DNA of 64,000 nucleotides from Psammoneis japonica (GCA_008632985.1 QPGO01000005.1:641607-705606); one strand, 5' to 3'; counted from the first letter of the stretch, positions 1 to 64,000 are shown. A program made the numbers and translations. The notes: a model not told the origin generated them from the sequence alone.

Positions 1-31
1 AGAGTTTTACAACCAGCTCCAACTGGTGCTG

Positions 32-814
32 TCAATCCTTCACCAGTTGGCACTTTAGAAGAATGACAAGGAATCTGCGATGCAGCAAACCCTTTCCAGG
101 TGCATTGCAGCCATGAACACCGGGGGCCCAAAATTTGTCCTCCTTGATTGCGGTCTGAAGTCGGCCCCACCATGCCCCAAAACCCATGGAGCATCCCAGG
201 CGAAAGTGCTTGTCTAAAACATTGAAATGCTTGGCACAGAGATGTTCATGATTGGCCTCAGTGTCCTCAGAACGAAGCCTCTTGACGTGGTCAGGCAGAC
301 AGTGTGTTCCATGCATGTTGGCAAAAACCTTGCCAGGGACCTTCTGGCCAGATCCAAACACCGCCTTGAAGGCAAAAACAGCAGCCAAATTTTCAGCAAA
401 ACTTTTGTGAGCAGCCTTGGGGTTGCTGCGCGCCATGCCTTCCCCAACAGTGGGTGGAACCTTCAGATCCATGGCTTCCTTGTGGCAAGCAATGAGGTGC
501 TGCAACAGCTCCTTTTTGCCCTGAGGCAAGGGAATGATGCCAGGTTCCACAGCAGAAGCACAAGCAGGTGCAGCCTGGCATGCAGCCTTGCGCCTCTTGG
601 GCTTGCTCTGGCCCTTGGCAGCCTTGCTGCTTGCCCTTGCCATGGGCTCCAGCGGTGCTGGCACCAGCGCCGTCACCGCCAACAGCTGTGGAGGCACCAC
701 CAGGAGGAGGAGCTTGAGCAACACGTCTCCCAGCACTGGCAATCTCAGCAGTCCTCTGCATCGATGCCAAAGCAGCAGAACATCGCCCCGGTGGGGGCGG
801 AGATGGGTCTGCAA
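32..814 (-). pseudogene. degenerate protein-coding relic, unknown family
   Basis: 260-codon Tyr-free ORF whose C-terminal half reads like a globular protein. It lies inside the TpA- and CpG-poor DNA and has no recognisable motif. Confidence 0.3.
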
Positions 815-851
815 CCAAAGGAAGAAAGAATCTCAGGTGAGTGAAATCCTT

Positions 852-1025
852 CAGCTGAGAAAAAATTTAACAAAAGGCTCAGCTGAACACTCAGCTGAGC
901 CGATGAGGGATCATTGTGCTCAGCTGAGCAGGTGGGCTGAGCTGGAGAATGGGGCTCAGCTGAGCAAAAACCAACACCAAAAACCACCAGCAGTGTGTCG
1001 TGCACGTGCAGCAGTGCAGCTGAGA
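852..1025. repeat. cluster of CAGCTGAG / GCTCAGCTGAGC palindromic repeats
   Basis: Perfect 12-bp palindrome GCTCAGCTGAGC at 918-929 and 955-966, with partial copies near 852, 877, 889 and 1017. Confidence 0.8.
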
Positions 1026-1514
1026 AGCAAAGACAAAACAACAAACCTCCTGTTTCCAAAGAGGAAGGAAGCCACGGTTCATGGCAACAACTCACCTCCA
1101 CTGTCTTTGAGATTTGCTCATCCAGTTGGGTGGGGCATGTTGACAGCAGTCGTTGTGGGTCGTCCGAGTGCGATGCGATGCGGTGTTTGCGTTTGGTCGG
1201 TTGTGTCTTTGTGTGTGTGTGGAGGAGGAGGAGGAGGAGCGAGCAAGCGATTCAAGTGAGTGAATGGTCAGAACTTTGGGGTTCGCTCTGGTGTTCGCGG
1301 ATGTCAGAATTCAAGTGATGCGCTCGGGCAATGTCACGCGCCGGAGCTCGCGGTCCGCATGTGGAGCGCACGGTTGTTTTTTCCGTGCTGCTGACGTGCA
1401 GTGCCGTGCACCATGGGATTGCATGCAGTGTCAGCCCGGGGTCAGCCGGGGGTCAGCGCGGTCAGCGCGGGGGGGGAGTGCAGTGCTGCATGAGTGCTGC
1501 ATGAATGTGCCAGT

Positions 1515-1750
1515 TTTTTTTCGATTTTTTTCTTCAGTTTCGTTTCTTTGGAGCTGCACACAATGTTTTTTGTTCGTCAACAAAATTACAATGTTTGAAT
1601 GTTTGGTTTTTCCGAAATGTTCACACGTTCATGTGTGTTTGAACAACCAGTTGTTTCGATTTTTTGTGCATTCATGGATGTTTGAATGTTTGGTTTTTTC
1701 GATTTTTTACCGCTCAAATTCCATTTTTCGATTTTTTCCAATTTTTTCAC
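1515..1750 (+). repeat. T-rich direct repeats, possibly subterminal repeats of a DNA transposon
   Basis: atgtttgaatgtttggttttt occurs at 1591 and 1678, and tttcgattttt recurs about four times. Confidence 0.6.
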
Positions 1751-2208
1751 GCGCCACCGCACTCAGGACACATGACACCCGCACGACATCAACAAAAAAC
1801 AAAAAACAAAAGGAGAGATGAACATCACAGGCTCAGTTGAGTCTGTGTGAACATGGAGTGTCAGATCGACATCGCCACACACAATGGCAAAAGGCCGAAA
1901 GCGAGTTGATCAAAACATGGGACACTTTTCTCGTTTCACAGTAAACCGCATGGCATGGAATGATCCCATGAACATGCGACACGTTCCTTTTCAACAACAA
2001 CAAGAACGAGAGCATTGCTGTCCATGAGAGTTGTGAATTCCTGTGGTTGGGAGACCTTTCAGACCATTTTTGAAATTCGCAAGGGTGGTGTCGTCAAGGC
2101 GTTCGATCGGATTGATGATGCAAGTAGAATCAGCACATTGGCTGTCAGAAACATTTTGAACCAGAGCTGCATGGAGTGGAGTTTGATGACTGGATGCAGG
2201 GTGAGGCC

Positions 2209-2235
2209 AGAGAGAGAGAGAGAGAGAGAGAGAGA
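2209..2235 (+). repeat. (AG)n microsatellite
   Basis: About 13 consecutive AG units. Confidence 0.95.
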
Positions 2236-2399
2236 AAACGCAGCGTGTGTCGTCTCATTCTCTTCCCTTGAATTCCACACGGCAAATCTTTTCTTTGTTT
2301 TGAAGAGGCTCAAGGTTTTTGTGTTGGTTGTCGTTTGACGAGTGACGATGAAACGAAACCACAAGTGTGGAAAATGACAACCCGAGCCGGATCATCAGG

Positions 2400-5045
2400 A
2401 CGAGGTGGTGTGTCAAGGTGCGGGACCCAGAATGGCACCAGGCACGTTGATTTTGGCAGTGACAATTGAGTCTGACACTCATGCCTTCCGCTCTGTTTGT
2501 GTTGACCGTGCAAGATGCAACTCCATTCGATGCCAGTGGCGGTTTGTGTCAGGTTGTGATTGGGCCAAACGTGATGACACTTCTTCGACTTTGCTTCAAG
2601 TTGCGACTCCTTGCACATTGGATGCATCCCAAGCCAAGGAGCAACGTCCGCCCATTCTCAAAGCACTGGCACATGTCATTGGACTGCTCTTCTTGGAACA
2701 AAAGCAAGTTGATGACCAGGAGAAACTCGCACCATCCAGTGGTTGGGGAGGACTGGGCAGATCAATGGTCTCTGTCGATTTTCACAATTCTCCTTGTTGT
2801 TTGCTCTCTTGTCATTTCTCCCTGAACTAGACAATGCGCCGTTCTGCTGTGAGGTTGCTGCGAGAGCAAGGCAACATGACCCGATGGACAGCGATCAAGT
2901 TTGGAATGCCAAGACGACGTGCCAGCAGCGGCTTGGTCAAGTCCATTGCCACAATGGTGGGAATCGTGCTGGACGATTGTGCATCCACCCTTGTTCACTC
3001 TGGCGCTCGACATGCTCTTTTCTGTCCTCTGATCTCTGTCAGTCGAGTGATCAAATCCATCAACAGCAAGCCATCATCCAAACCTAAACAGGAATTCGGG
3101 CTGAAGCCTGTGCTGCTGGCACTGGGGCGATCCAGCTGATGTTGGGGCCCTGCTGCTCTCGATCTGAAGCGAATTGCACCTGGTGGGGCCTCTCTCTAGA
3201 GTCCTCTCTAGTGGAGTGGAGCAGAGAGCACAGAGGGCTCTGTGAGTTGGAGCACCGAGAGTTTTCGGAGGACGGCACCAGGAACAAATTGATTGAATGA
3301 AATGGTGTTTGTCTTGTGTCGTGTGTTGTGCACACTGTTGCACAGTTCATTTCTCACACAATCATCAAAAGCAGCTCCCCTTTGTTGATTTCAGCTTTTA
3401 AAAATGACGCTTGAAGGTGTTGCAGATCAAAACGCGAGTGCTTGGACTGTGTCATGCGTGACGTGGATGAGAACTGGATTCCAGCGACTGACACTCCATT
3501 GGAACCACCATTGACCGAGAAGGGTGTTGGACAGGAACGTTTGTTGGGAGAAAAAGTGAGGTGACTCTTGTCCGAGCGCGCTCTTTTTGCTCTTTCAGCT
3601 TTTCACTCCTTGCTCTTTTCTCAATGCAAGAAAGCAGCGCAAGATGCACTCGGGGGTCGAAAACCCAATGCACATCAACAGACAAGATTGGAAGAGGGTC
3701 CACCAGAAAGCATTGATGAGAGTTGGTGCCGTTCATGGTGCCTGCTGAATCTGATGGCACTTGTGGGTTCCGCAACAAGCCAAGGCGCGAAGTCAACGAT
3801 AAGATTGATTGAGCAAGGTCCACAGCAAAGCCAAGATGCCTGTGCGGTCGCCACTGGCAAACTGTGGCAAAGCCAACAATGAGGATGCTGCAATTGACAA
3901 TGAGTGCCCTTCATTGCATCAAATTGGCAAAGCCAATCAGTGGGGAAACTTTGAGTCTCGGTTCAGAACAACGAGAGAGAATGCTCTTTGTGGTCCAGAC
4001 ACTTGCAAAGAATCACCACAGGGGCAATGCCATGCTGCTGGTCTTGCATGGTGGATCAGCGACTCATCTTTGTGAGTTTGTCACCAGCCACAAATGGCCC
4101 CTGCTGGCGAGAGCACTTGTTGCTGTAGTGTTTGCGTGCAGGGTGCAGGTCAAGGGTGGAGACTGGGAACAAATCGTTGTCAATGAGTCGATTTCATCCA
4201 CTTCTGAAAACCATGCAGGCTGGCGACACACACCGCATTGCACGACGCTGTCAGGCGCCATTGGATGCCAAGGCATGTCTCTTGCTTGAGGACAATCTCC
4301 TGAATGATCGCAAAGCAACGGCTGCCAAATTTTCAAGATGCTCAAGGAGAAACAACCCAACGATGCTTTGGCCGAAGGCAAGGATGACGCAGACAAACTC
4401 ATCGCGGTGCAGCCTGACGACTTGGTGCACTGCTTTTGTCAGTTGGAGATGATTCATGTGCCACTGGTTTGCTCAGTTCCGAACTCAATCATGTGCACCA
4501 TCTCAGTGGATTTGCAGACAATGTCTGTGCAGAGGCCTTTGTCGTGGGCCATGATCATGACATTGTGTTGGAGATTCTGGTCGTTTGTCATGCTCCCAAC
4601 CCATGAGCCACCTTGATGATGATGCTTGCCACCATGTGTGACATGCAAGACTGCCAAACACCCGCAGTCTCAAAATGTTTGCCCTCTCACTCAGATCACC
4701 GTCAACGCCTCCATCACAAGGTCTCCTCCACCGAGACGGGGCAAATCTTTGGCGCCATTGTCTGTGAAGACACGGCGACACGAGAGAAGGGCTGCATCAA
4801 TCTCAATGCAATCAACATGAACATGATGGACAGCACTCGTCTCACAACTTGTGCCGACGAGTTTGTTCGACCCATGTGTGTCCAGTTTGAAAGTGGCCAT
4901 TTCAACCTCGATTCCCATCTTGTTGGATTTTTTAAAATGACATTGTGGAGTCGACCAACATGTGTCGCCTCACTCCGCAAGAGACATCGGAAATGGGAGA
5001 CTTCCTTGCCGCCAACTCCTGCACAAGAAGGTGGTGAAACATGAG
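2400..5045 (+). pseudogene. fragmented degenerate gene(s), unknown function
   Basis: Protein-like stretches in shifting frames (e.g. LKEKQPNDALAEGKDDADKLIAVQPDDLVH; TGQIFGAIVCEDTATREKG), interrupted by TGA stops and lacking Tyr. Confidence 0.3.
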
Positions 5046-6530
5046 ACGGTGCTTGTTCTCGATGCACTTGTTGATTGTTTCCTGATTTTGTGTTGGATTT
5101 GTGCAAAAAGACTTTTCATGAGTGGCATCTGTTGACACCGGGAGAAAGAAAGTTTCGCAAAACTGTTGGTGCAGACAAGGTGCCTTGTGAGGTGTTCAGC
5201 ACACTGTTGCAAGCACGACAGCGTTCTCGTGTGGGATCAGTCCTTTGCGCGTGCGCTTTTAGCGCATTGGTGCATGAGTTGTCCTTGCGCGTGCTTTTAG
5301 CACATTGGTGCATGATGTGCATTTGCTGACAGAGTTTCGCAGTCTTGAAGATTCATCTGACTCAAGCATGCTTTTGTTGTTTTTGTGGTGTCATTGCCCC
5401 TCGTTCATGTTTCTGTCGATTTGTGTTTCGGTCAAGAAGAAGGACGATGACAAGGGCAAGTTGGCTGGGAACATGTGGATTCGTTCCAAGAGATGAGGTG
5501 TTGCTCTGAGTTTGGGCGACAGCGAGATCCACACCCGAAGCCAAGCAGTGAAACAAACGATTGGGACAGTGAACACAGAGCATGATCTGAACTAAATGTG
5601 TCACTTCTTTAGCATGAAACTGCGTGAAAATGGCTCTGCTGCCATGCCCATTGATCCCACTCTCTGGGCTTCTCTGCCCTCGATTTGGTTTCCCATGCTG
5701 GCACCACTGGGGTTGATCGCGTCCTTGACACCAACTGGGGACTCGTCGTGTGAGGGAAAAAACATGAGGCTTGGCATTCTGTGGATCAAGCATCTGGCAA
5801 TTGACAGGGTTGGTGATGATGATTGCATGGGGAACCATTTGAACTAGAACATTCAAAAGCTGCATGAATGACACAGTTCTGCACATTTGTTCTAGACGCC
5901 GTGGAATGGTTTCGTTCATTTGCTGCCACAGGGAGGAGCCGCTGTCCTTTCCAATGTGCAAACAAAGCCAAACCGTGACGCCAATGCTTGCCTTGTTGTT
6001 TCCATTCTTCCACAATTCATTCTCCGCATCCAAAATGAGCAAGGGTTTGGTTCATTGACTGCCGCAGGTCTTGAGCAAATGCAGAGTCGTCGTTTCGCAT
6101 TGAAGAACCAACCATGCCTGGTGCACATTTTGTTTTGGAAAACACAAGTTGCGGGGCGGGACCCACTGTCACTTGAACCTTGGTGCTTCAACAAAGACTG
6201 ACTGCCATGCATCGTTTCAAGTCGGGTGGTCGAACCGGGGCACAAAGGGTGCATTTCTGTGTTGACAAAATGAAGAGAAAAAGCAACGTCAGTGAGCAGG
6301 TCTCGAACGAAAAGAAAAACAGACACGAAATTGACTTACGCTGGGGGTGCATTCAAATGTAACATGGCACAATGAACGCACCCCATGGCATTGTAAATTG
6401 CACGACAAACTCGTGCAATGTCAAAGAGTCTTTGATGTGCACAAAAGCTGCGTTGCACCATGAAATGGAATCGAGAGATGCCCCCATGCATGCTCGATTT
6501 CCAAAGGTGCAAAACAAGCAGTCAATGAGT

Positions 6531-7670
6531 CTAGCGGCGACTCATGATCCCAGCAGATCTACGCACGACACTCCCAGCATTGGATGACAGAAAGATGCTG
6601 CCAGCAGCTTGACAGAGCCCAGGCGAGCATCTCAACGGGACAGTGTGGGCTTGCTTTTCTTTGTTTCTCACAAGTGTGGCATCGGGAACAACATCCTCCT
6701 CTGCTGCTGGATTGTTGTTGGCAGCCACATCCTGGACGTCGAAAGTGTCGTCAGGCTCCTCGGCTGCAACTCCAAGAACGACTCCCTCGTCATCATGTGC
6801 AGCAATCGCAGGATCGTCCATGGTGTCATCTGCAGCAGGTTCCTCAACGTCAGCAATGGGAATGCCCACCTCCGCATCGACTGGAGCATTGTCAACAGCC
6901 ACAGCAGGCTCGTTCAAGGCATCATCAGCATCAGGAACTGCTTGCTCCACCACAACAGGATTGTTGTCCACAGCTTCAGCCGGTTCAATCGCCGCTTGAG
7001 TCCGCACCCATCCATGCCAGTGATCATGTGGTGGGTGCGATTGACACTCATGAATGCATTGGCTCTGTTTCCGTTCAAACTCAAGCAGAGCTGCAGTCAA
7101 CCTCTGACCATCCAACAAAGGCATCACACGAGTGCATCAAGGGGTCTGAAGTGTTCGTCGAGCAGTCACGCTGGTTGGGACTGGAGGGGCGTCACCACGG
7201 CAAACGTCTTGAAGCATCATTTGGTCCGGTCTCCATCTGATCCGACCGCAGCCAAATGGTTTGCGCTTCAAAAGCAGCAGCCATGGGAACACAAACCGCA
7301 AGGGGACACACATGGCATGGCACATGGTCCACACAATCAATGCAACAGCGAGAGCAGCCACAACAGCATCGCACGCTCGATCCCAAAGAAGAGTGGCAAG
7401 GTCATCGATTTCCACAATCCGGCAGTGCAAGAAACAGACCTTGTCACCAATCAACTTCAACGAGGAGTGTGTGAATGTCCCAGTGTGCAAGGCGAGGAGA
7501 ACTTGCCAGATCGCAACGACAAAGGACACGAGAGCGTGAATCGTGCAGAGAATTTTGTCCCACGCTTCCGAAAGGAAACTGCCAACGATTCGGCCATGGT
7601 TCTGCTTGCTGTGAAATGAGCACAGCACGAGATTGACAAATTGAATGAGCAGTGCAATGCATGCAATCAC
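6531..7670 (-). pseudogene. degenerate membrane protein with acidic Ala/Asp/Val-rich tail
   Basis: Hydrophobic ORF 7137-7670 is followed in another frame by acidic low-complexity ORF 6531-7127 (PAEAVDNNPVVVEQAVPDADDA...). Both are Tyr-free. Confidence 0.35.
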
Positions 7671-9323
7671 AATGGGGGTGGCAGTGTCAACAAAGATGGA
7701 TTGGTGTCAGAGTGTTTCAATGCAAGCAAAACTTGAAACTGTGTGGTGAGCTGTGGTGAGCGTGACGGTCGCCCGTTGTTGCGGTTGGCCCATTCGTGTA
7801 TGCACAGAAAATGCACTGGAAGAGCCCGCAGAAAATCCGACACAGTCCCTCACGATTTTCGATTTCGCGTGATGTGGGCACATTTGCACTCGGTTAGTTG
7901 CAGGCTTCTTGGCAGGAACAATCAGAGACCGAGACTGACGATGGATTTATTCACAATGAACATTGTCCATTTTAGAGCCATTTCTCGCTTCCAGCATCCG
8001 CAGCGCATTCCTGGCACACTTTGGCATGTCAAGCAGACCATCCACTTGGGGGCTCAGACTCAAAAGCTTGCACCATCCACTTGCATCCTCAGCATCACAT
8101 GTTCGCAGATCAGAGAAGTGTGCCTGCATTGTTTTTTGCATCACTCACCAATTCAGTCCTTCTCATCTCTTGACCAAGTCCAGTGTGACGCGAACCGTGT
8201 CCAAGCCACCAAATGGTGCTTCACTTTTTTCAAAAGGCTTTGGGATCGGCAGCCAGCTGGGAAGGGGAAAAACCATCGAATGAGCGGTTGCTTCAATTTT
8301 GAACACTTCCGCGCCAACAGCAGTGGATTGCGTCACCATTCCAGCACACGCCTTTTAAGGAAACAAGTGCTGCAACAGCTGTGGGACTGAAGAAAATAAA
8401 AGGCGCTCTGCGTGATCAAAGCAATGATGGCTGATGTCCCCATGCACATTGGGAACCCGTCGTGCGCACGCAAGTCGCAACGGAGGCATCTCAATCACCC
8501 CACGTGTCCAAGGATCAATGATGGGGATGCGCCACCAGAAACAGGATGCATTGCACATGACTTGCCCATCCGCCTGAGCAAACGATCCAGGTCTGGGCAG
8601 GTCTGGGCATCATTGCGTCTTTCGTCAACTCTCTCCTTGGCATTTGCTGGCAAAGTGCGTAGAAACGGGTGATGCAAATGAGACTCGCTGCCAATTTTGC
8701 ACCGATGGCAGTCGGAGAGGAAAACCTGAGCGGGCCACAATCATGCAGAACCTGTGGCTCACCACACTGACACTGTGCTTGCACTCCGTCCCACAAGCTG
8801 TGAGGACAACAGAGTCAGGAACACTGGTCAAGGTGGCCCCTTCTTGTGCCCAGAAACAATCAAGCATTTCGCTCTTTCAGTCAACGAGACTGCCTTTCTT
8901 GGTGCTGTCCTCGAATTTGAAGATCCCCCTCAGGCAGAAGGAAGACCTCTCGTGTGACTCAGCCAGTCGACCCTTGAAATGAAGCTTCAGTGTGCACAAC
9001 GCCAACATTGAATGACCACGACAGAAGTGGAATGTGCAAAGGAAGCATTCACCTGCAATCCGGGATTAATCTTCAAAATGCTCCAAACTCGTTTCCAACT
9101 TGTGGAGATCTTCCATGAAGGAGTGATTCGGCTGGACACAACTCCGGCCTTTCTTGGCCAGCACCAATGCATCATTGCGGCTCAGTGTGAACTTTTGCAT
9201 CAAGTGCGCAAACACAATGGCCCCAGATCACAAAACGCCCTTGCTGCAGTGCACCAACACAGGTTTGCCACTGCAAATGTTCCTCGCATTTTGGTGCAAC
9301 AGTGCTGGGTGCCGCCTCTTCAA

Positions 9324-11409
9324 TCATCCGAACGCGGAAGACTCTGTTTGTTTCAAAAAGGTCAGGTTGTTGAGAAGACATGTCCCCACCCAGAAACAAG
9401 CCGCATCATTGGAAAGAGTTGATGTCTTGATGGTGCTGTTAAACACATTTTCTTCTTCTTGAAGAATTTTGGGTTCCTCCTCCAACGAAGCTGCAAGCTG
9501 CCAAGCATCATTTCCCAACATCAAATTTCCATCAAATGTCATCGTTGAAAGCTGTTCTTGAGTCATCAGTTTGTCCCAGATGACACCAGCTTGTGTCGGC
9601 GGCACTGCCTCAAAATTTCCCTGCCACACCTCACCTTGCATGCCGCCGGCAACTCCTCCTAGAAAAGAGCAGTGACTTCAAATGAGATGCGGCAGCTTGG
9701 TCAAAAGGAGAAATGTGTGCGTCACAGAGAAACATGCTTGCCTTCGGCTTTTGGAAAAATTGAGAATCCGTTCACAGCCACAAAGTCTGTCTTTTTTGCA
9801 GCACCACTGAGAACAGCTTTTGCTGCATCTTGTGGGAGGCATTTGAACATTCCGTCATCTTCTCCTGCTGGCGAGCCGATCTTGGCATCGCGCAGTTTTT
9901 TGCTGTCATGCAACCATGCAAAAGGCTTTTCAGGCTCACCTTCAAATCCACATTTTCCGCCGCATCGTTGTGTTGTGGATGTTTTTTTGTTGTCTTTTAA
10001 CTCCAGATCAATGGTTTGAGTTGAAGGATGGTTTGGCAGCACACCAACAGACATGGCTTCGTCGTCTTGCATGAGAAGCACAGTTGACTTGTGAAACTCT
10101 TGGTTGTCCAACAAGAAGGGTGACCGTGCCAACGAAGAACATCGCAGCAGCGTTCCTGCGCAAATCTTGCTTGTCCCGTTCATTGACTCTGTGGCACGTT
10201 TGATCAACAAATCAACAGAGTCAAGCTGTGTGTCGCCGTCGCCACCAAGCGTTGACGCGACAATTTTTTCAAGCTCGTCTTCTTTTGTCTCTGAGTTTTC
10301 ATCATTGTCAAAGAAAAGCATTTCTCTAGCCCATTCTCGTGGCATGAGATCTTCAAAGTCATTCTCAGACGTGGCCGCCTTTGTCTCCTCCTTACGATCA
10401 ATCACCGTCATGAGTGCATTCCAAGTTTCGATTCCCGCTTCATGTGGATCTCGGCTCTCTTGACCTTGCTTGGCAAGCTGTTGCAGCAGAGTTTTTGAGT
10501 CTGCTGCCACCACACACCAGGACTTTTGTTCCAATTCATCCAAAAGTTGCCCAGCATTCCAACCACTGCATCTGCAGAACACCCAAAAGTCGGTTGAAAC
10601 TGCGTCACCATCATCAACCAGCTTTCGAGCCCCTTCAAAAGATGTCCACTGCCGGTCATTCAAAAAGAAAAATCACACACAACCATTTCAGAAGTGCCAC
10701 AGAGATGAGAAAGAGCAAGAGATTAAACAAACCTTGACTCCATTCAGCACCGTCCTCGAAACCTCTTCGGCTGCATCACTTGTCAAAGAATGCAGGCAAA
10801 CAATCTCTCGGGATTTTCTGATGACAAACCTTTTGTGCCCCCACCAAACCAAACATGCCACTTGTTTTCCTTGTCCACATCATCCAATGGAGAACCATCC
10901 TGGTGGATAAAATCATCATCAGATGGCACCAGATTTGTGGGGCGATTCAGTGTCACGCCCCTCGCAAACATGTTTTCGTCATGCTCCAACACCAAAATTG
11001 CACACCCATGAAAGTGTTGTTGCTGCAATCCATTGCAGAAGTCTTGCTGCGGTTGACTTAGAACAATTGAACCTTCTTTGACAGCATCGCCACTCTCACA
11101 GGCCCACGACGCACCAAGTTTGCTCGAAGAAAGAGTGTTGCCATCCGAGGCATTTTTGCCGAGCTTGCCATTTCCTGTCACCAACTGCGCATGAAATTGC
11201 CTCCAGCCCTTGTCTTCGATGTCGATCAAGTCATCTTCATCATCTTTGTCTGGATCCTCAGAACTCATTTTGAGGATCCGGCCATGTTTTGTTGGGTTCT
11301 GCACATTTCGTGAAGTTCCGCTGCGAGAGCGATGCTTTGGCTGCAGAAAGGATTGAACTTTGGCCAGCGACAATGCGACAAAACAGAGCTGGATAAATGT
11401 GAAGTGCAT
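9324..11409 (-). pseudogene. DUF179/UPF0301 (AlgH-like) two-domain plastid-targeted protein, pseudogenised
   Basis: Signal peptide MHFTFIQLCFVALSLAKVQSF. Degenerate AlgH motifs: FHGCAILVLEH, RGVTLNRPT, VWFGG, FCRCSGWNAGQLLDELEQKSW, and a second domain FHKSTVLL...GVLPNHP. Introns 10649-10732 and 9659-9741 restore the frame. A 2-nt AG duplication at ~10806 causes a frameshift. No Tyr codons. Confidence 0.85.
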
Positions 11410-11580
11410 TCGACGTGAAGACTTTGTCATTGGAGATCTCTTGCCTCTCCAATCTCCATTTGCTTTGCTCTTCATGACGGTGTGTCGTGTCATCGTTGTT
11501 GTCCGCTCCCGCTGAAGTTCTGACGGCTGACGAGCCAGTCCACCGCGCGACTCGCGCGCAGCGAGGAGGAATGAGAGACC

Positions 11581-11590
11581 ATGACGTCAT
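11581..11590. promoter_or_regulatory. CRE-like palindrome ATGACGTCAT in a divergent promoter
   Basis: Perfect palindrome between the divergent DUF179 pseudogene and CDF gene. TGACGTCA also occurs at 15342-15349 and 36205-36212. It matches the bZIP/aureochrome-type core TGACGT. Confidence 0.5.
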
Positions 11591-11715
11591 TTAACGCTAT
11601 TTATGCGTGTATATCTAATATAACAGTGCACGCATCTGACACGCGCCCTCCACGCACGTCTCGAAAGCTCATCCGCATTTATTCGCTCACTTTTTCAACT
11701 TGAACAACGCAAAAA

Positions 11716-23660: not shown

Positions 23661-23779
23661 GCTGATGTAGCGTTCAATAGATACTTCTTGTGTCGTTCCC
23701 AACGTATTGTAACTCGGTGCTGCCTGCGGTAAATGGCAAACACCGCAAAAAAAATGCGTCCCCGCAATAACCCGCGCAA

Positions 23780-29700: not shown

Positions 29701-30010
29701 AAGTCATTTCTCTGTTGCAAGTTGTTTCGGTGGGGCGCTGTCTTCTGGCAATGCCCATCTCAGCTGGTCATTGTTCTCTCCTGTCTAACTTGACTGTGTG
29801 CTGGGGAGTGTGGGTTGGCCGACGTCAGCATGGCCGGCAAAGAAGGAGTGACAGCACTTTAAAAACAGGTCTGTTTTTTTCTTTGCTGTTGTTGAGGTTC
29901 CTGAAGCGCCTCTTGTTGAGGCCAGCCCTCCTGAAGATTTTTCTGCTGGCAAAGTTGTGATGTGGGTGAAGAGATGCTCTTCACGGAGGAGAGTGTTCTC
30001 GCTCCTTTTG
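23780..30010. other. TpA- and CpG-depleted hypermutated domain 2 (unrecognisable relic, probably a repeat or TE)
   Basis: Only roughly 15-20 TA dinucleotides seen by eye in ~6 kb, and CG is also rare. Saturated with TG/CA. Dozens of overlapping Cys/His/Gln-rich ORFs nearly free of Tyr. Confidence 0.9.
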
Positions 30011-45432: not shown

Positions 45433-48400
45433 TTAGGCTCTCTTTCCGCCTTTTCCACCCTTTCCTCTTTTGCCGTAATAACTCTTGCGTTTATCGTAAC
45501 TCGAGGTGTAGCCATACCGGTAGCCACCCTTGTTGTACGGCTTGCTATACGGCTTGCTGTAAGGCTTCCTATACGTCTTGGACGGTCCCGGCCTTGGTCC
45601 AGGTGACATTCTCGGTCCCGGTCTCGGTCCAGGTGACATTCTTGGTCCAGGGGCTGGTCCACGGGCTGGTCCAGGGGATGGTCCAGGTCCAGGGGACGAT
45701 GACTTCCACCAGTTCGCTCCGAATTTCCAGTTCGACGGGTTGTATTTCGATGCACCGTAACCAGATTTGAATCCTGCCATTTTCGCCCTCTTGTCGTCGC
45801 TGCTGTCACAATCCTTGTCGGGTCTCTTTGGTGTCCGTGTCCGTCTGACATCTGGACGTCTGCTTGGACTTGGTGGTCGCCCATCGCCTGGTCTACTTGT
45901 AGGACTGGGCCTACCTGTAGGAGTTGGTGGTCGCCCATCGCCTGGTCTACTTGTAGGACTGGGCGGACTGGTAGGAGTTGGTGGTCGCCCATCGCCTGGT
46001 CTACTTGTAGGACTGGGCGGACTGGTAGGAGTTGGTGGGCGCCCATCACCTGGTCTGCTTGAAGGAGGATATGTTGGCCTTGTGTCAGGGTTCTTGGGCC
46101 TTGCCGTGGGGCTACGTGTCTTTCGAGGCTTAGGCGTGGGTGGTCTTCTATCGAGCGGCCTTTTAGTCGGATTTGGTGTTCGTTGTGGCCGTGGCTTGCG
46201 CGTTGGCTGACTAGTTCTATCCAGAGGCCGCTTCGTGGGATTACGTGTCCTCGGAACAGTAGGCTTCTTGGTTCTCTTTGGCTTGGGACGCTTGGGACGT
46301 TTGGTCTTGGGTCTCTTTCTGCACTTCTTGCCGATTCGGCCGTACTTGCACTTCTTCCTTCTACTCCTGCTCGAGCTTGTGGTGTACTTGCTTCTGCTGG
46401 TCTTCTTCCTACAGTTCTTGCCATTCTTGCCGTACTTGCATTCTTTGCTGCTGGAAGATGACGAGGAAGGTCTGGGCCTCTTGGTTGGCTTCGGCTTTTT
46501 CGTTCTTGGTGCCTGGGTCTTCTTGGGTCTCTTGGGCCTCTTTGATGGCTTGGGTTTCCTTGTCGGCTGTTTCGTCGGGGTCGTTGGTCTCCTGTCGCCC
46601 GGTCTGGGTTTGCGAGTAGGAGCCGGTGTCAAATTGACACTTACGTCATAGGTATCGGAGTTCTTGCATATGTCACCTCCTGCTGGCGGGTCGGCTTCAA
46701 CGAGAACGCTCGTTTCAAACAGTCCTTCATCACATCTGTTCAACCTGATCGTCTCGGTGACGACACTGGTTTCTCCAATGTCGAGGAAAGAGGGACTTAC
46801 TTCATCAAGCATGTCTGTCGTAGTTCCATCCTGCGATCTCTCGAGTACAGTGATGTCCATCGGAATACTTCCCATGTTCTCCATTGTGTACGAATATTCG
46901 ATGTCCATGAAACAGTCTTTTGTATTTCCGGCTTCATCTTTGCATTTCTGCAAAGTGATGCTTCCAAAACGGTCGCGTAGTCGAAGGTCAACAGTTCCAG
47001 ATGTATCGAATGTTACTTCTTGACAGACAGTACCTCCGTCTTCCGTTGCGATTGCGCATGTAAGGGAGTCGGGAAGAGTAGATCCTGCTGGTGCCTTTAC
47101 TATAAAGACTCGTTCGAAGCGGACAGTGTCTTCAAACACGAGATCTCCGTCGTCATCTTCGCACGTGATTAAGACGAGGCTAGCTGCAGCGCAGTCGTTC
47201 TCGTCGTCAGTAGCGGTACATGTGAAGGTGCCTTCGTCCTGTTGGCTATTTGCACTATCAGCACATGTACTGAAGGAATACAGAAAGGAAAGACTTGTGA
47301 GTGGGTCGTCGCCATCGGCACACTGGCTCGCCACCTGAGGGATATCTTCACATGATGTTCCACTAGGGACATCGTCGACGCCTCCCTTGACCTCGCAATC
47401 AATGTCGACCTGAGACAACGAGGCATACACAGAAACGTTAGGGCGCCATGTCAGAAGAAAAAGAATCGCACTCGTACGTCATAGTCTCGTTTCTGGCACT
47501 TACGTCAACCAAACATTCACGAGAAGGTGTGCGAGTAGGCGCGGGTGTCAATTCGACGCTAAACTCGTAGGTGTCGGTGTTTTGGCAAATACTACCTCCA
47601 TCTGGTGGGTCGGCTTTCACAATAACACTGGTCTCAAGAAGTCCTTCGTCGCATCTGTTCAATCTCACAGACTCGGTGACGACACTGGTCTTTCCGATGG
47701 GGATGAACGAGGGATTCACTTCATCAAGTATGTCCGTTGTAATTCCGTCCTGCGACCTCTCGAGTACAGTGATATCCATTGACATACTTCCCGTGTTCTC
47801 CATTGTGTACGAGTATTCGACATCCATGAAGCAGTCATTTGTATTTCCGGCTTCATCTTTGCATCGCTGCAAAGTGATACTTCCAAAACGGTCGCGTAGT
47901 CGAAGGTCGACAGTTCCAGATGTATCAAAAGTTATTTCTTGGCAGATAGTGCCTCCGTCTTCAGTTGCGATTGCGCATGTAAGAGAGTCGGGTAGAGTAG
48001 ACCCCGTTGATGCTTTCACTATAAAGACTCGGTCGAAACGGACAGTGTCTTCAAACACGAGGTCTCCATCGTCATCTTCACACGTGATTAGGACGCGGCT
48101 AGCAGCAGCGCAGTTGTTCTCGTCGTCAGTAGCGGTACATTTGAAGGTGCCTTCGTCCTGTTGACTGTTTGCGCTATCAGCACATGTACTGAAAGAGTAC
48201 AGAAACGAAAGACTTGTGAGTGGGTCGTCGCCTTCTGCGCACTGGCTCGCCACCTGAGGGATATCTTCACATGATGTTCCGATCGGGACGTCGTCGACGC
48301 CTCCCTTGACCTCGCAATCAATGTCGACCTGAAATCGAGCACAAAGTAAGAAGGAAAGGATTAGATATGAAAATGGGGACTTTGCAATGATGGCTGCTAA

Positions 48401-51107: not shown

Positions 51108-53054
51108 GGTCGCAGAGGAAAGATCGCAGTTGTTTGTTTTATGGGGAAACCTTTGGTTGTTTTGTTGGTCGATTTCGTGAGTGACCAGTTTGGTGGAAGT
51201 CCGACAGTCATGATTCGGGATTAGGCATTGGAGGGCCAAGGGGCTTATCATTGAAATGACCGAGCCAAATATTTCGAAAAAACTGGTCATTGGGGCTTAT
51301 TGCAAAAGTCATCAAAGTCTGCTCATTAAACTTATTAAAGATTGATGAATTGTCAACTAACATGCAAATTGTGCATGTCTGATTGTTTAGGCGGGGGTTT
51401 TGAACTGTTACTAAGAGGTCATAATGCCGGACATCGACCATACCAAGCAGAGGTACTGTACCGTACCTGGTACTGTAGTCGTAGACAGACAACTTGCCCT
51501 CCGGCATCAGGACATTCGACAAAACTAGCACCAATAGACAATTTTGACTTCGACATCGAACAGATAGGCCCCGCCAAACATTTTCGTCCCGTCAGTGTTG
51601 ATTATGGACGAGCGGCATCAAACATTAGGCCCCGACCTTCCCATCCTCAAAAATCGAAAAGCACCAAGTTAGGTCGTGATGTCTTGGTCATCCCGTAATA
51701 CAGTAGTACTTCGAGTTGCCCGGTCCAGGCGCAGAAGAGCGAAAGAAAGGAGGAGTCGTTCTCGTCACGGGATTCGTGACTGATTCACGAATACGATCAA
51801 ATCAATGCAAGGTGAGCATGAGCAAATTTCGTGACGTTGCTCGCTGGGGGCGGCTAATTTGAAAGCGTGTCCATGTAAACGCACGAGATAAAAAGAGTGA
51901 TAATTCTTCTTTACTTTCTACAGAGCTAGCAACTTACAGGTAGCTTCGAACGAGCAAAACAGAACACTGCCGATTGTTGTGGAGTCTTTCACGTTGCCCG
52001 TGAACCGCAAGCCGCCAAAATGTGCATCGTGGTAACCAATCAGGATCTCTTGATTGTAGAAGAATCACAAGGCTCAAGCTGTGGATTCAATGCCTTTGAT
52101 GACAGACCGTCGAGTTGCGCTCCTCCCTGTCACCGCCACGCACCACACTAAACAGTTTGAGACATGTTCCATTCGAGGGCCAAGGGATTATACACTAAAG
52201 TATAATCCCTTGCGAGGGCGTCCAGGTCAATGGGAAGGAATCGTACTCAGCTCCGGTGAGGAAGTGACCCTGCTTCCTTGCGAAAAACACACCTTCACCA
52301 CGATCTCGCCAGCAAATGGCAGCTTGCGCCCCCCCCTGTTTCCCAACCCAGACAACATGGAATACTTCTTTCCCAATTTGTTTTGGACGATCCGAAACAA
52401 GCACAACCCGGTGCAAATAGTTTATGCAGGAATGGATTCAGTCTCGCCGACATGCCAGCCATGCTCCACGAGGGCCTGTGCGTGATACTGAATGTACTGG
52501 CTTCCTAGGCTGGATTTCAACTCGAACAACCGGAGTACGCCTATAAAGCAACTTGCTACAGTGCCGTTTTTGGTCGATGGAAGGCATTGGCATTTTTCCA
52601 TACATAAATCGCATTTTTCATTTTTCTGAGGCCTTTGTCCATCGCGCATAAGGAAAGAGTGACGCAGAGTTGCCACTCGAAAGAAAAGCGGATCTTGTCC
52701 TTGTCTACGGGGAATTTGAATATTGCCGCTTCTTGCGAAATACGACACTCTGCTGTCTCACTTCTACCGATTCGACAGTCACAGCTAGTGCCTCAATCAC
52801 TTTCATCTGTTTACTCCCATTTTGCCAAACTCACTTTGTTCGCTACTTTGGGGAATAACATTTGAGTACATCGATGATGACTTCTCTTCTTTTCGTGCAA
52901 TAATTGTCTTGAGACCAATAGATTCATCGGCTGTTATCCGGCTCAATTGTAGTTTTAGGCCTTGCAGGCTCCATTTCGCCTCTTACGCTGTGACAGTGCC
53001 TTCTTTGTGCCTTCATCCATGATGGACTCGCGCTGACAGCAGATTTATCCTGCT

Positions 53055-53112
53055 GCTCTCTCTCTAGTAGAGAGTAGAGCTCTCTCTAGAGCTAGAGTAG
53101 TGCCGGTAGCAG
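53055..53112. repeat. TAG-rich island at the left edge of domain 3
   Basis: ctctctctagtagagagtagagctctctctagagctagagtagtgccggtagc. Confidence 0.75.
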
Positions 53113-55360
53113 CCGTGGCAGAATCACAGGCACAGCGGGTCTTGCAGTCGTCGCGATTGGTCGCCAAAGAACTTTGACAAAAAGGGAGACAACGTTTCGT
53201 CACACACATGAGCAAGAGTGCACGAGACCTCGAAAGTGGCGATTTGTTTCTCTCAAAAGAGCGCTCATCATTTTGGGAATGGATGTCTCGGGTTCAGTTT
53301 TGGCGATCGAGCGATGTCTTGCATCCCCCCTGTGCGGGGAAAGGGAGAACACTTGAAACAAACACTGGCTCTTTGCACCTCCACCTCACCAAACTCTCAG
53401 ACTCAAAAAATGTTGAATTTCCCAAGAACAACCGTGCCCCTTGATGTTGATGACATTGCCTTTCTTGTGATCATTGCCACATGCTCTTTTGTGAGGAGCG
53501 TTTTGTGAGGAGCATGCCGGCCATTGTTGCAGAAACAAAAATGTTGCACAGACGTGCTCAAGCATTGTTTTCTTCTCTTTTGCCTCATTTGTGCATGAGC
53601 AATCTGAGCTCTGCCTGAGAACATCGCAGCTCTTCTTCTCTCTTTTTGGCGCACAAAGCAGGGCACCCGTGGCTCTCCTCTTGCCATGCCCAAACAAGTG
53701 GAGTGACCTCATGGTGTGGGCAAGAGCTGTGTTGTCAAAGTGAAAAGTGAGCAAGCAATGGAGATGGCGCATCATCAAAAACATGACAGGCTTGCTTCAG
53801 AGACACCGCTCCAGAGCACACCAGGAGAGGAGCACTGCCTGAGGGTTTTTGTGCATCACCTGCAGTTGTGTTCAAATCAGGTGGGATTTTGGGAGGCATG
53901 CGCCCATTCAGGATTGTGTGCTCATGCTTTGTTTTTGACAGCGGCTGAGCCTCAACACTCATGTTGCCTCTCAACAGAGGCAGCAGCTGCTCTTTGTCTA
54001 AAAAAAAACAAGCAAATCTTGAGGAGAGTTGCAGCTGCAAGGCAATGTCATTGTTGCACATGTCCTGTTTTTTTTTCTCTTGGGCTTGGCATTTGTGACA
54101 GCTTGCAAACACAGACACAAGGCAAACCAAAATGATGTGGCAACACCCTTTTGAAAAACAGCCAACGTGCAGAGCCTCACCTTTTCTTGGTGTGTGTTGG
54201 AGCTGCTGATGGGAAGCCAATGTGTTCAATGGTGAACAAGCTTCTTCCTTGAATGACTCATGAGCTGCTGTGACGCGCCACTCTTGTTGGTGACAGGCAG
54301 GCAAAATTCGCGTTCCAGGGTTGCAGCAGGATTGGTGGCATGTTGTTCGGAAGGAGATGGAGAATGAGTGCTTGCAGCTTGCAGGCGGAGCACGTGGATC
54401 TGTTACGACGATTCTGCAGAATCTGAGATTCTGCTGAATCCTGGCATGGAATCTTGTGAAAATGAATTCTGTGGAATCAGACCTTGTGCCCATGTTTTGA
54501 TTCTTGTGAATGATAGATTTTGAAGAATCCGTCTTGCCCACTCACCAGAATTCCTGTTTCTTGCAGTTGCCGGATTCTGAAGAATTGGCTGCTGGCTCAA
54601 GACGTGGCACCCTTGTCTCTCAGCCTCTGTTGCTCTTTTGCAGCACCTCTTTTGTTGTGATTCTGTTGAGTTTCTTGGTCAAGAGGAGAGTCTCTTTGTG
54701 TTGCTTTTGCCGCCATCATGTCAGTTGCCCTTCCCCCCTCCCGCCCTGATGCCACTGCTGTGACTTCTCCCGAGAAGGTCAGGAACATCTTCATGGAGAC
54801 CAAGCACCGAGATGCCTTCAACAAGGCTGCATTTGGCGTTGAGAATGATGACTTTGCCAGTGCTGTGATCCCGCCAAAGTCCAAGCTCCTGCTTTGATCT
54901 GAGTGGGAGAAGAGGGTTCGGGCAGTGAAGTTCTGGAACACGGGAGCTGATGGGCTCAGTGCAAAAGAGTTTCGCAAGCTTTTCACCCACCAAGCTTGCG
55001 TGTGGCAGAAGGTTTTTTTGGTGGAGACAAGTGACCTTGGCCATGACACGCTTTTCCAGATCAAGAAAGGCGCAGATGGATCTGTGACATCCAAGCTCAT
55101 TGTTCTCTACATTGAGCAGGTTTTTGATGTTGTGGCGCAGCACCATGGACAAACAGGTGGTCATCTCAAAATTGGGTCGCACGTTCAATGACATCAAGAA
55201 AAAGTTTTACAATGTCACAGAATTGCTGGTTTCTCACTTCATTGACCTTTGCCCCACTTGCAGCAAGGCGCAGCCTTCTGTGTCAAGAGTTGAGGGGGCT
55301 CGAGTCCCCATCATGAGCAGAAGTTTCCGGGACCGTTTCCAGATTGACTTGGATTACCGA
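53112..55360. other. TpA-depleted hypermutated domain 3
   Basis: Very few TA over 2.2 kb and TG/CA-rich. TA reappears progressively from ~55108. Confidence 0.85.
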
Positions 55361-55400: not shown

Positions 55401-55587
55401 CGCGTCACACGGTGCTAGAAGCGCATGCGCAGTGCACGCAGATCTGCCGCAGCGGCCATGAGCCACTACATAAGGCTCTATTATTTTTACCGCCGCACCA
55501 TCACCCAAACGGTATGCAACGCTTGATCCACCGTCTCTCATTCAGTAGTTAGTAAAGAACTGGTATATATGTCACAGCTATAAAGCC

Positions 55588-61500: not shown

Positions 61501-62937
61501 CTTTCTAGCCATTGTCTTCGCGTGCGCCAGCTCGCAGTTGGCGTCATTTTCTTTGTGCTCCGGGTGCTCCAACTTAAAGAAGCGCACGCATTGTCAGCCT
61601 GGAGGGATAGGCCGCAGCTTGAAATGATACTCAACGCAGTTCAACGTGGTTTAAGTGTTAGAAGGGCAACGAGGCAGTCTCAAATGAGCGAAAGAAAGCC
61701 AGAGGCCGACATTGTTCTACCAAAGTTTCCTGCGGTTTCTGCGATTTTCCTCGCTCGCGCTTGTTTTGTTGTCGCAAAGCCTGGTGATGCCTTATTTGCG
61801 CCCATCAATCGCTTCTTCCTAAGGACTGAAATAGATTGTGGGGCATTTCAAGACATTGGTCGTCTTCCAGCTTTCATATCTCTTTTCTGTTCGTCTTCGG
61901 ATGAACCCGGACAGGCTCGAAGAGAGCGACTGTGGGCACTCCAGCAATTAAAGGATGGCTTTGCTGATGAGTTCTGTTACAGCGCTGTTGCATCGTGCCA
62001 CGCCCCTGAACTTGTGATGACTTCTTTCGAGAGCTTACCACGTCGATGCGATCAAACTGAAGGTGACTTAGAGTGCGTCCTGCTATTGAATACGTTGGCA
62101 ACCATTGTCAGTCGTGGTGGAAAGCGTGCGGCGCATCATCTATTCATTCGGCTCGGCCTTTTTTCTTGGCTTCGGTCAGTTTTAGTCGGTCGAAATGTAT
62201 GTGAATTGCTCCCCACGGTCGCTTGTCGACTGTCGTTTCTTCATCTTGTGACTGTTGCTGCTCGGATAGTGGACCAAGCTTACGACGGTGACAGCAAGCT
62301 TTCCACCGATAGCACAGTTGAAGAAATCTTCAATTTAGCCAACCCCATTCTACTTTTGCACGAGACTGGGCACCAGCGGTTGAGACATGGAGGTGGTTTG
62401 GTGTCTTCTGATTTGGCCAGTGCGATTTGTGATTCACTTTTTTCCTTGGCAACTGCTGTAGACCGTGCGTTTGCGACGGGCAGAGGGTCATACCACCGTC
62501 TTGGTGCAAACCCTTTTGGACTATGCATTTCATCAGCATTGCAGTTACTCGCCATGACTCCCGCGGCTTCTTTAGAAAAAGCTGTTGCTTCATTTTGCCG
62601 TCTACCGTTTCGTTTCGAGCCTACCAAGGCGAAGGAAGCTTCTGATTGTTGCGAATATATATTGACGTTTGTTTTGAAGAGCAAGGATTCTTCAGTTATT
62701 ATCGCGGATGTGTTACGGCGGGTTTCGCTGTTTGCCAAGCTCTTTGGAAACTCACTTGAACCTGATGGTCGCATTTTAGCGCTCACTTTGGCATCTAGAC
62801 GTTGTTGCAATGGTCTTCTTGGCGGCAAACAGGAGTTTACAGAATGCATATCAATTCTTTTGGAGTGTCATTCAAAACCCAGTCGCCTTCCTGAGGATGT
62901 TGCTGGCATCGCTCATCGGATACAAGAATCTAGTTGA
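55588..62937 (+). CDS. URB1: nucleolar pre-ribosomal-associated protein 1 (URB1/Npa1)-like
   Basis: Very large helical protein with about four introns. C-terminal YSPAYIL, LALAALSS...R, AIFLARAC.VV..P...LF..INRFFL, LPAFISLF.SS and ERLWALQQL match the NopRA1-type domain. One apparent frameshift at ~59250. Confidence 0.75.
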
Positions 62938-63239
62938 GCGAATAATGGCGTCATAGACGAGTGAATTCAGATTTGCTATTAGACCATGGAGCAATCATTG
63001 TCTTGCTCGTAGTCATGGATTCGATTCGGAGCTAGTAGTGTTACGCACGCTACATGGGTCGAGGGGGACTCATCGCCGCATTGATCTTTCGTGGCGTCTC
63101 TCTCGAGAGAGCTTGTGTAGCCAGCATTTACCACTGTAGGTCCGCTTCATAGATCGCGTGCGCGACCGATCTCTACTCAATTGATGGCTGCTGTAGCTGG
63201 GGCCCTGCCGGCACTCTCTCTAGCTAGCCATCTCTACCC

Positions 63240-64000
63240 CAGAGCCACATGAAGGTGGGCTTTGGCAGATTTGCCATCTTGTTGTTGTTGAGACAAGCCA
63301 GCTGCGGTGCTGACAAGCTTGACTCTTGTCGTGCCAAACTTTTCTTCCAGCACCAGTGTTGCCACTTGGCTGCAGCAGATGTCATTTTCTTCAACTGCTT
63401 TTCTTGCCATCTTGTTGCAGGCTGCCCACACCATGTTCTTGAAGTTGAGCAGTGGCTGTCTCTGTCTGTTGCCAGTTTCAACAGCTTGTCAACAAACTCA
63501 ACCATCTGGTCAACGTGCAGGGGCACACTCCAGTTGGCCAGCTCAGCATGTGGCCAGGCTTGGTTGCCACCTTTTCTTTCTCAAACAGCTGATCAAATGC
63601 ATGTTGCAAAGCAGTGGCAGCTGGCTGCAGGGACACATGGGGCTTGTGACACTGCAAATTTGTGGGGACAATGCATTGATGCGCTGCACAACATGCTCAA
63701 AGAGCAACATTGTCAGCAGCGCCCCTTTCAAGAAATCTGCCTCAGTGCCCCACCCAAAAATCAACAACAATCATGTGATGTCTTGAGGTGCTGGCAAAGT
63801 TCAGCAAGTTTTGGTCAAGACCTGCAACACATCATCCTGCCTCTAAAAAGGAGTGCACACATCAAGCGCAACATCTTGTGACTGCTCACCACCCTGCTGA
63901 GCTGCTTGGCAAAACTTTTTTGTGTGCCAGATTAAAACCTGGGCTTTCCACCTTTCTCACAGCACCAAGGGACAAGTTTGTGGTCTGATGTCAAATGAGC
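63240..64000. other. TpA- and CpG-depleted hypermutated domain 4 (runs off the window)
   Basis: Only about two TA (ctaaa, attaa) and very few CG in 760 nt. It starts immediately after ctctctctagctagccatctctac. Confidence 0.85.

Follow-up and report, generated by a model that had tools for sequence, protein, structure and literature searches.

Four TpA-poor blocks in a Psammoneis japonica genomic window and the case for local hypermutation at TpA

Described hypermutation systems and the blocks of Psammoneis japonica

The closest described counterpart of the system considered here comes from mutation-accumulation lines of Bigelowiella natans, in which 231 of 302 nuclear mutations fell in integrated giant-virus and virophage regions (Mettrop et al., bioRxiv 10.64898/2026.01.13.699255). 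According to this preprint, 230 of the 231 mutations in the two regions were A>G or T>C changes, all of these on TpA, at a rate of ~6e-7 per site per generation, which is ~1000-fold above background; the genome also contains 124 TpA-poor, CpA+TpG-rich clusters and 324 predicted genes nearly devoid of TpA. An ADAT2-like deaminase is proposed there by the authors (bioRxiv 10.64898/2026.01.13.699255). In this paper, we describe four blocks nearly lacking TpA in a stretch of 64,000 nucleotides from Psammoneis japonica (GCA_008632985.1 QPGO01000005.1:641607-705606), hereafter the window, and weigh the processes that could have produced them.

Three other systems invite comparison. Fungal repeat-induced point mutation (RIP) resembles the present case in being a regional, transition-only and dinucleotide-specific hypermutation that kills genes and leaves a dinucleotide footprint. 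However, RIP changes C to T mostly at CpA and thereby creates TpA (PMC2621366 and PMC3318451), whereas TpA is destroyed in the present blocks, which hold 71 TpA and 1075 ApT; moreover, the duplication trigger that defines RIP is unsupported here, as discussed below for a spared duplication of 807 bp. The second system is the decay of CpG in methylated DNA, which is shared by the blocks in that CpG has been lost to TpG/CpA (observed/expected ratio, O/E, 0.13-0.63) and in that the allelic differences of block 2, among those listed, are mostly CpG<->TpG/CpA. Unlike the present case, the deamination of 5-methylcytosine cannot remove TpA, and block 1 retains ~9% of its TpA but ~70% of its CpG. The third comprises TadA and ADAT2-3, together with TadA-derived base editors, which convert A to inosine that is read as G. 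The natural target of TadA/ADAT enzymes, A34, adjoins U33 in tRNA. These natural enzymes, unlike the process considered here, act on tRNA, and we know of no natural TadA/ADAT member that has been shown to be active on chromosomal double-stranded DNA in a defined chromatin domain. A 5'-ACG motif is given for TadA/ADAT2 and 5'-UAG for ADARs (PMC10661471), and a TadA-derived editor prefers YAC (PMC13109818); the YAC/ACG preference matches the T-A-Y context found here.

The blocks were delimited from the O/E ratio of TpA in 1-kb windows along the whole stretch and from the lengths of the gaps between successive TpA. The ratio is 0.01-0.09 in every 1-kb window lying fully within the blocks and 0.39-1.06 in those lying fully outside. 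The total number of TpA is 1746, and the outside density predicts ~809 for the blocks, compared with the 71 counted. The 31 longest TpA-free gaps (267-1239 bp) are all located inside blocks, while the maximum gap elsewhere is 264 bp. Together, the blocks (Table 1) occupy 20,853 of the 64,000 bp (32.6%), with blocks 1 and 4 extending past the start and end of the window, respectively. The initial annotation, made from the sequence by a model, had described four sharply bounded TpA-poor and TG/CA-rich domains covering about a third of the window; this description is borne out, with boundaries that agree within 12 bp, and the TpA ratios in 1-kb windows, a kind of check suggested there, confirm the contrast between block and flank in this 64-kb window. 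Since ordinary DNA outside long open reading frames (ORFs) keeps a TpA O/E of 0.68 (48.7/kb; CpG O/E 1.07), the depletion is regional and not a genome-wide neutral bias.

Table 1. Features of the window; positions are counted from its first nucleotide
Feature	Position	Strand	Details
TpA-poor block 1	1..11590		44 TpA in 11,590 bp, O/E 0.06; CpG O/E 0.63; TG 1.54; CA 1.63
TpA-poor block 2	23768..30010		17 TpA in 6,243 bp, O/E 0.04; CpG O/E 0.19, near CpG-free
TpA-poor block 3	53107..55360		between two active genes; 7 TpA in 2,254 bp, O/E 0.05; CpG O/E 0.45
TpA-poor block 4	63235..64000		3 TpA in 766 bp, O/E 0.06; CpG O/E 0.13
Composition inside the blocks			TpA 71 (3.4/kb, O/E 0.05); CpG O/E 0.47; TpG O/E 1.61; CpA O/E 1.71
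Composition outside the blocks			TpA 1675 (38.8/kb, O/E 0.58); CpG O/E 0.98; TpG O/E 1.15; CpA O/E 1.17
Coatomer beta C-terminal remnant	4332..5520	+	Pfam Coatamer_beta_C, E 3.9e-10 and 2.7e-5; PDB coatomer beta, E 3e-7
Dual-specificity phosphatase fragment	9069..9227	-	Pfam DSPc, E 7.2e-7, 29.5 bits (below the curated cut-off of 33.5)
AlgH-like (DUF179) remnant, two frames	9725..11593	-	Pfam E 1.3e-13 (profile 90-143) and E 0.0016 (profile 2-60)
CTAG/TAGAG-rich low-complexity elements, intergenic, intact	16933-17024, 44950-45200, 53040-53107, 63170-63235		
Mutated CTAG/TAGAG-rich element in block 1	3185..3250		TAGAG 3, TGGAG 3, CAGAG 3
Duplication of 807 bp in two adjacent DUF7467 genes (internal control)	46607..48332	-	blastn, 87.1% identity over 807 bp

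Compared with B. natans, the blocks share several properties: the changes are A>G/T>C only and on TpA only, leading to TpG or CpA depending on the strand; they are confined to discrete regions; TpA depletion and CpA/TpG gain appear in clusters of 1-kb windows; and many of the affected sequences are unannotatable. There are also differences. The depletion is saturated here, with an O/E of 0.05 in contrast to a rho of 0.45 for the B. natans region of nucleocytoplasmic large DNA virus (NCLDV) origin, and CpG decay accompanies the loss of TpA. A 3'-pyrimidine preference is found here, whereas a term search of the preprint found none. The organism also differs from B. natans: a 661-aa protein encoded in the window has no relative above 44% identity among 5.8 billion clustered proteins, and the only named relatives seen are from Cyclotella (a diatom, 32% identity) and Paraphysomonas (a chrysophyte). 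Both are stramenopiles, to which the organism is assigned on this basis, and its being a diatom is plausible. The likeness itself is real, in that a process of the same TpA-restricted kind is met in a different eukaryotic lineage, at saturation, and on host-derived as well as unidentifiable DNA. The initial annotation knew of no described system of this kind in diatoms; this stands, as no report of TpA-specific or RIP-like hypermutation in them was found in the literature searched, but outside diatoms there is now the description in B. natans.

Evidence for a conversion of TpA and CpG into TpG and CpA

The four pyrimidine-purine (YpR) steps TA, CG, TG and CA add up to 241.9, 238.2, 226.7 and 249.3 per kb in blocks 1-4, and to 239.9 per kb outside, and the blocks differ from their flanks only in the way this total is split among the four steps. 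We deduce from the unchanged sum that TA and CG have been exchanged one-for-one into TG and CA, and were not natively absent. The tetranucleotide (4-mer) spectrum of the pooled blocks correlates with that of the window's normal DNA at r=0.72, a value that rises to r=0.94 when the normal DNA is first converted in silico from TA/CG to TG/CA. For the individual blocks 1-4, the correlations with the converted DNA are 0.95, 0.90, 0.84 and 0.77, and block 1 reaches only 0.75 with unconverted DNA. In addition, GpC is raised 1.26-fold and ApT lowered to 0.85 in the blocks, as expected from the changes TAC->TGC, GTA->GCA, TAT->TGT and ATA->ACA. That the changes are A>G/T>C transitions only rests on three indirect observations, namely the YpR totals (227-249/kb in the blocks and 240/kb outside), the 4-mer match, and three of the four tyrosine columns described below.

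The loss is specific to one step. TpA is down to 9% of its normal density in the blocks, while AA, AT, AC, AG, GA, CT, TT and TC all lie at 0.85-1.09 of normal, and ApA in particular occurs at 77.5/kb in the blocks and 73.3/kb outside (ratio 1.06); a T on the 5' side is strictly required. TG and CA are present in equal numbers in the blocks (2141 and 2182), and a runs test detects no clustering of either (z from -0.3 to -1.9, the same range as in normal DNA), showing that both strands were hit independently.

The base on the 3' side also matters. Among 68 surviving TpA, 38 are found in YTAR, for which 15.9 are expected, and only 1 in RTAY, for which 16.5 are expected (chi-square p=4e-10), the expectation being a random reversion of the local pool of TG/CA contexts. 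TTAA shows a retention of 0.40 and CTAG of 0.25, whereas ATAT, GTAC, ATAC and CTAT have none (0). Because YTAR sites survive and RTAY sites are eliminated, TAY is the preferred target over TAR. A fit to the asymmetry between TG and CA products gives relative rates for the 3' base of 1 for C, ~0.7-0.8 for T, ~0.2-0.4 for G and <0.1 for A. With respect to rate, block 1 has lost ~91% of its TpA and only ~30% of its CpG, so that TpA loss is faster than CpG decay there, and the loss of TpA exceeds that of CpG in every block. The (TG+CA)/TA ratio of 4323/71 allows only a lower bound to be inferred, with the forward rate exceeding that of the reverse transition by a factor of ~60 or more.

Traces of the same change are found at the protein level in block 1. 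At the four columns where 55 aligned coatomer homologues have a consensus tyrosine, the coatomer beta remnant reads TGT (Cys), CAT (His), TGT (Cys) and AGC (Ser). Over the whole coatomer stretch, Tyr is reduced to 0 from a homologue mean of 4.8, whereas Cys (9, mean 2.2), His (10, mean 3.4) and Met (9, mean 3.5) are increased, as expected from TAY->TGY/CAY and ATA->ATG. Similarly, the AlgH-like remnant contains RCSGW where a solved bacterial chain has GYSGW, a replacement of Tyr by Cys. As evidence for the direction of change, these replacements are supportive but thin. The TAGAG-rich element of block 1, in which TGGAG and CAGAG occur (Table 1), points in the same direction.

Read data also cover part of the window. 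Sequencing run X1 contains 93% of the sampled words from 20501-30500. A single Logan contig of this run, 18,640 letters long at a word depth of 60.1, extends over 15818-31000, departs from the window at 26 letters and by 17 gaps, and joins block 2 to the normal genes on both sides. Of the 222 rows of X1-versus-window differences, 40 are listed; six of those in block 2 are single CpG<->TpG/CpA changes, two are TG<->CA doubles and four are of other kinds. A second run, X2, is RNA-like, with GT..AG joints; no X2 contig lies on 24341-29676, which does not count as evidence of silence.

Taken together, the step totals, the 4-mer spectrum and the Tyr->Cys/His remnants support the proposal in the initial annotation of a separate, regionally confined A:T->G:C process at TpA. 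We consider it highly likely that a local process exists and is specific for TpA, and probable that the blocks are ordinary nuclear DNA of this alga after local hypermutation.

A proposed process and its rivals

The observations are best explained by a local process at the DNA level that turns A:T into G:C at 5'-TA-3', strikes the two strands at random and continues until TpA is nearly gone. A slower CpG->TpG/CpA decay would proceed in the same blocks, most simply by deamination of 5-methylcytosine, and the CpG loss points to a domain that is probably cytosine-methylated. The process halts within ~100 bp where neighbouring expressed genes have their promoters or ends, and this points to targeting by chromatin state (silent, probably methylated DNA) rather than by sequence repetition. 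The blocks are made up of fragments of dead genes, parts of dispersed repeats and filler in which nothing can be recognised. As to the underlying chemistry, the most likely route is that a TadA/ADAT2-type deaminase, brought to silent chromatin, would deaminate adenine in the DNA and leave hypoxanthine, which is read as G. The target context of such enzymes is seen in the strict 5' T, the elimination of RTAY and the retention of YTAR. Of the two candidate mechanisms in the initial annotation, a TadA/ADAT-like deaminase fits better, by its strict 5' T and 3' pyrimidine, than error-prone synthesis of the polymerase-eta type, whose other WA motif (W, A or T), ApA, is undepleted. Given the context match and the proposal made for B. 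natans, an enzyme of the ADAT/TadA type is a plausible agent, although the assignment is tentative.

A reaction that starts from thymine is the rival that fares best, while still being unlikely. A TET/JBP-type oxygenase would make 5-hydroxymethyl- or 5-formyl-uracil at TpA in silent chromatin, which mispairs with G and leads to T>C. Oxidised thymine does mispair, and certain protists modify T preceding A. Since T>C on one strand is A>G on the other, all of the compositional results fit this chemistry equally well, with R-T-A as the context. However, it is favoured by no result, and the 3'-pyrimidine preference matches TadA-type enzymes; for thymine oxygenases no such preference came to light.

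Slightly less probable still is a trigger by duplication, as in RIP, in which repeats recognised by homology would be mutated at TpA. Block 1 does carry partial copies of host genes, and several X1 contigs of 80-90% likeness align to 11034-11468; block 2 has repeated pieces at ~25.7-26.3 and 29.0-29.9 kb, with 11-14 contig ends at 29843-29880; and 161 of 216 differences on the contigs aligned to the window are transitions. The pieces at ~25.7-26.3 and 29.0-29.9 kb in block 2 and at 11.0-11.5 kb in block 1 suggest diverged relatives elsewhere in the genome. Against such a trigger stands the 807-bp duplication in active genes, whose 87% identical, linked copies keep 31 and 32 TpA, a normal density, with only 11 of their 104 differences being TA<->TG/CA; because this pair is spared, duplication alone is not the trigger. 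Furthermore, no similarity among the blocks in the window was detected by self-blastn or by purine/pyrimidine-coded blastn, most of block 2 lies at a single-copy word depth of 60-65 in run X1, and the block edges follow gene ends. The idea in the initial annotation that repeats are being erased therefore finds no support in this window.

A foreign or mobile origin of the blocks, with TpA and CpG scarce from the outset, is far less probable. Blocks 2-4 are without a recognisable host gene, and the hypermutated regions of B. natans are viral. However, TpA is part of both Tyr codons and so cannot be missing from functional coding DNA, and block 1 carries host-type genes with Tyr->Cys/His replacements. 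In all four blocks the total of YpR steps equals that of the host, the 4-mers match converted host DNA (r 0.77-0.95), and two ORFs from blocks 2 and 3 gave no relatives when scanned against viral contigs. The step totals, the 4-mer match and the Tyr->Cys/His replacements thus speak against a natively TpA-poor foreign origin, which the initial annotation had named as an outcome that would overturn its proposal.

Hyperediting of RNA from A to I by an ADAR-like enzyme, followed by reverse transcription and insertion, is more improbable again. ADARs do favour a 5' U (bioRxiv 10.64898/2026.01.13.699255 and PMC10661471). Such editing would, however, mark one strand, whereas TG and CA are equal and interleaved here; no reverse transcriptase is found in 313 block ORFs; the edges match gene ends and not insert ends; and a 3' G is listed in ADAR motifs, yet TAG and TAA survive in the blocks. 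Least probable of all are two further explanations. In the first, methylated DNA would attract error-prone repair synthesis like that of polymerase eta, with errors at WA motifs; TpA is such a motif, but ApA would not then be left undepleted (77.5 and 73.3/kb). An artefact of base calling or assembly on modified DNA gains what room it has from the absence of any record of the platform behind the window and X1, and from the possibility that X1 derives from the same sample; it is unlikely because the X1 contig, a separate assembly, carries the same TA-less block 2, at a depth of 60 over 15 kb, which would be unexpected from error-prone reads. In our judgement, polymerase-based reads leave the identity of methylated bases unchanged, and the frameshifts, stops and transversions of the remnants could not arise from miscalled TA. 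The reappearance of the block in X1 also makes unlikely, for block 2, the raw-read artefact that the initial annotation had raised.

Several points weigh against the proposed local hypermutation at TpA or restrict what it can explain. The direction of change rests on protein alignment and composition. The coatomer remnant shows 45 mismatches where its columns are conserved; one TG/CA change would reverse only 8 of them, 21 require a transversion and 13 take more than a single step. The remnant has diverged far beyond what the TpA process would account for, and the blocks may be old. With old blocks, a moderate rate acting over a long time is compatible with the data on rate, which give only the bound of at least ~60-fold. 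Among the listed X1-versus-window differences in block 2, none is TA<->TG/CA, and the footprint need not reflect ongoing activity; the platform of X1, as noted, is not on record. In the CpG-poor block 2, the 3' preference obtained from product asymmetry exceeds that of block 1 and could partly reflect CpG decay, a confounder by which the survivor analysis is unaffected. Finally, unlike the targets in B. natans, the blocks show no viral or transposon domain in 313 ORFs, and fragments of host genes are hit instead.

The blocks nevertheless add constraints on mechanism: both strands are hit, a 5' T is needed and a 3' pyrimidine preferred, the process stops at active promoters, duplication is not needed, and host-derived DNA is affected. 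A TpA process of this kind is probably widespread rather than the curiosity of a single species. More speculatively, and with considerable doubt, a chromatin-guided DNA adenine deaminase derived from TadA/ADAT2 might inactivate silenced DNA in stramenopile algae and rhizarians alike, as an ancient defence across the stramenopile-alveolate-rhizarian (SAR) group. If this were true, foreign, mobile and redundant host copies would all be targeted, and the system would be a mirror image of RIP and a natural counterpart of adenine base editors. A natural adenine-deaminating enzyme acting on chromosomal DNA would matter both to the biology of genome defence and to base-editing technology. A route to the enzyme is offered by comparing genomes that have TpA-erased blocks with those that lack them, in search of deaminase or oxygenase genes whose occurrence follows the footprint.

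Gene remnants, block edges and neighbouring features

A total of 313 stop-free ORFs of at least 45 aa from the blocks (92 + 87 + 134) were scanned against Pfam, and only three credible families were obtained, all of them in block 1 (Table 1); no reverse transcriptase, integrase, transposase or viral domain was found among these ORFs at E<=0.001. The initial annotation had held that every recognisable sequence in the blocks is dead, naming a frameshifted host gene and a truncated integrase. Three degenerate-looking host-type remnants agree with the first part of this statement, whereas no integrase was found among the scanned ORFs. As to viral or foreign targets, three host-type fragments and no viral domain were seen; heavy mutation may conceal foreign genes. 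Because TAA and TAG are nearly absent from all four blocks, both strands carry numerous long ORFs of up to 343 aa, which overlap one another and have no recognisable product, and gene predictors may call such spurious ORFs proteins.

The coatomer beta remnant corresponds to about the C-terminal third of the protein only. In tblastn it breaks up into pieces in frames +3, +2 and +1 that contain in-frame stops, and no N-terminal part was found upstream; to judge from these frames, it is a truncated and frameshifted dead copy and not a working gene. An exhaustive HMMER search with this piece returned 114 relatives. An exact-word protein search with the coatomer and DUF179 fragments returned no scored relative for either, probably because mutated residues break the exact words of five residues. 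Of the 133 positions of its profile, the phosphatase fragment matches only 87-132. The AlgH-like reading frame starts at the right edge of block 1, and ~30 bp past it begin the TpA-rich promoter and the RNA-like contig of the next gene.

The purine/pyrimidine period-3 signal is blind to transitions and would therefore reveal DNA that was recently coding. In the blocks it lies at background (median 0.93, compared with 2.9 in real ORFs), with two exceptions, the coatomer piece and a peak near 6480-6960. The latter is the strongest period-3 signal of any block, with up to 23 times the mean power, has neither a Pfam match nor a called tandem repeat, and may be a ghost coding region. The stop-free ORFs of block 2 have no Pfam match at E<=0.001, and the period-3 signal of this block is at background.

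At most block edges, the composition switches within ~100 bp or less. The left edge of block 3 is sharp to the base, with TpA at 53066-53107 and the next only at 53999, and at the right edge of block 1 the final TpA at 11394 is followed by a dense TpA run from 11592. Blocks 2-4 occupy intergenic space, and the edges track gene ends, not repeat ends. The first 200 bp of block 2 (23768-23970) are CpG-rich and may be the promoter of the neighbouring gene. A transition-tolerant alignment of six block edges gave a best score of 53, compared with a null maximum of 57.5. Blocks 3 and 4 share a match of 21 bp at their left edges, which was rejected as no better than shuffled controls. Just beyond both of its edges, block 2 is flanked by a 16-bp inverted match (15/16) at 23724-23739 and 30007-30022; its score of 13.5 is barely higher than the shuffled maximum of 12.5, and this match, too, was rejected as no better than shuffled controls and may be due to chance.

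Blocks 3 and 4 each have one of the intact CTAG/TAGAG-rich elements exactly at their left edge. The edge of block 3 adjoins a CTCTCTAG-rich element and that of block 4 an element of CTCTCTAG / TGCCGGCA. The count of CTCTCTAG in the window is 7, compared with 1.0 expected, and none of 100 shuffles reaches 7. Each of the four intact loci has 3-13 TAGAG and zero TGGAG or CAGAG, in contrast to the mutated element in block 1. The element at 16965-16979 reaches a word depth of up to 400 in run X1. These elements may serve as boundaries or as promoter/terminator elements, or they may represent a dispersed repeat.

Near the right edge of block 2, 29843-29880 appears as a high-copy short element, with a core of ~40 bp that is common to 11-14 X1 contigs and is then followed by unlike sequence on each side; some of the other copies read TTAGCCGG where the window has TTGGCCG. 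Adjacent to block 1, at 11620-11780, the promoter and 5' end of a cation-efflux gene occur in contigs of both X1 and X2 in a divergent version, with many substitutions and small indels, and the RNA-like X2 contig extends upstream of 11620 by 76 letters that are not present in the window. The divergent version is probably the other haplotype, and the edge of block 1 may differ between haplotypes.

A scan for tRNA genes in the window found none. The pair of DUF7467 genes at 45433-50305 (- strand) looks recently duplicated and repeat-rich, and one of them holds a 54-bp tandem repeat (45866-46066, 3.7 copies) together with other short repeats. Directly after block 3, 55549-62937 (+ strand) is occupied by a very large ribosome-biogenesis gene that appears to extend over several long ORFs, with N-terminal features of Npa1/URB1 and a NopRA1 domain.

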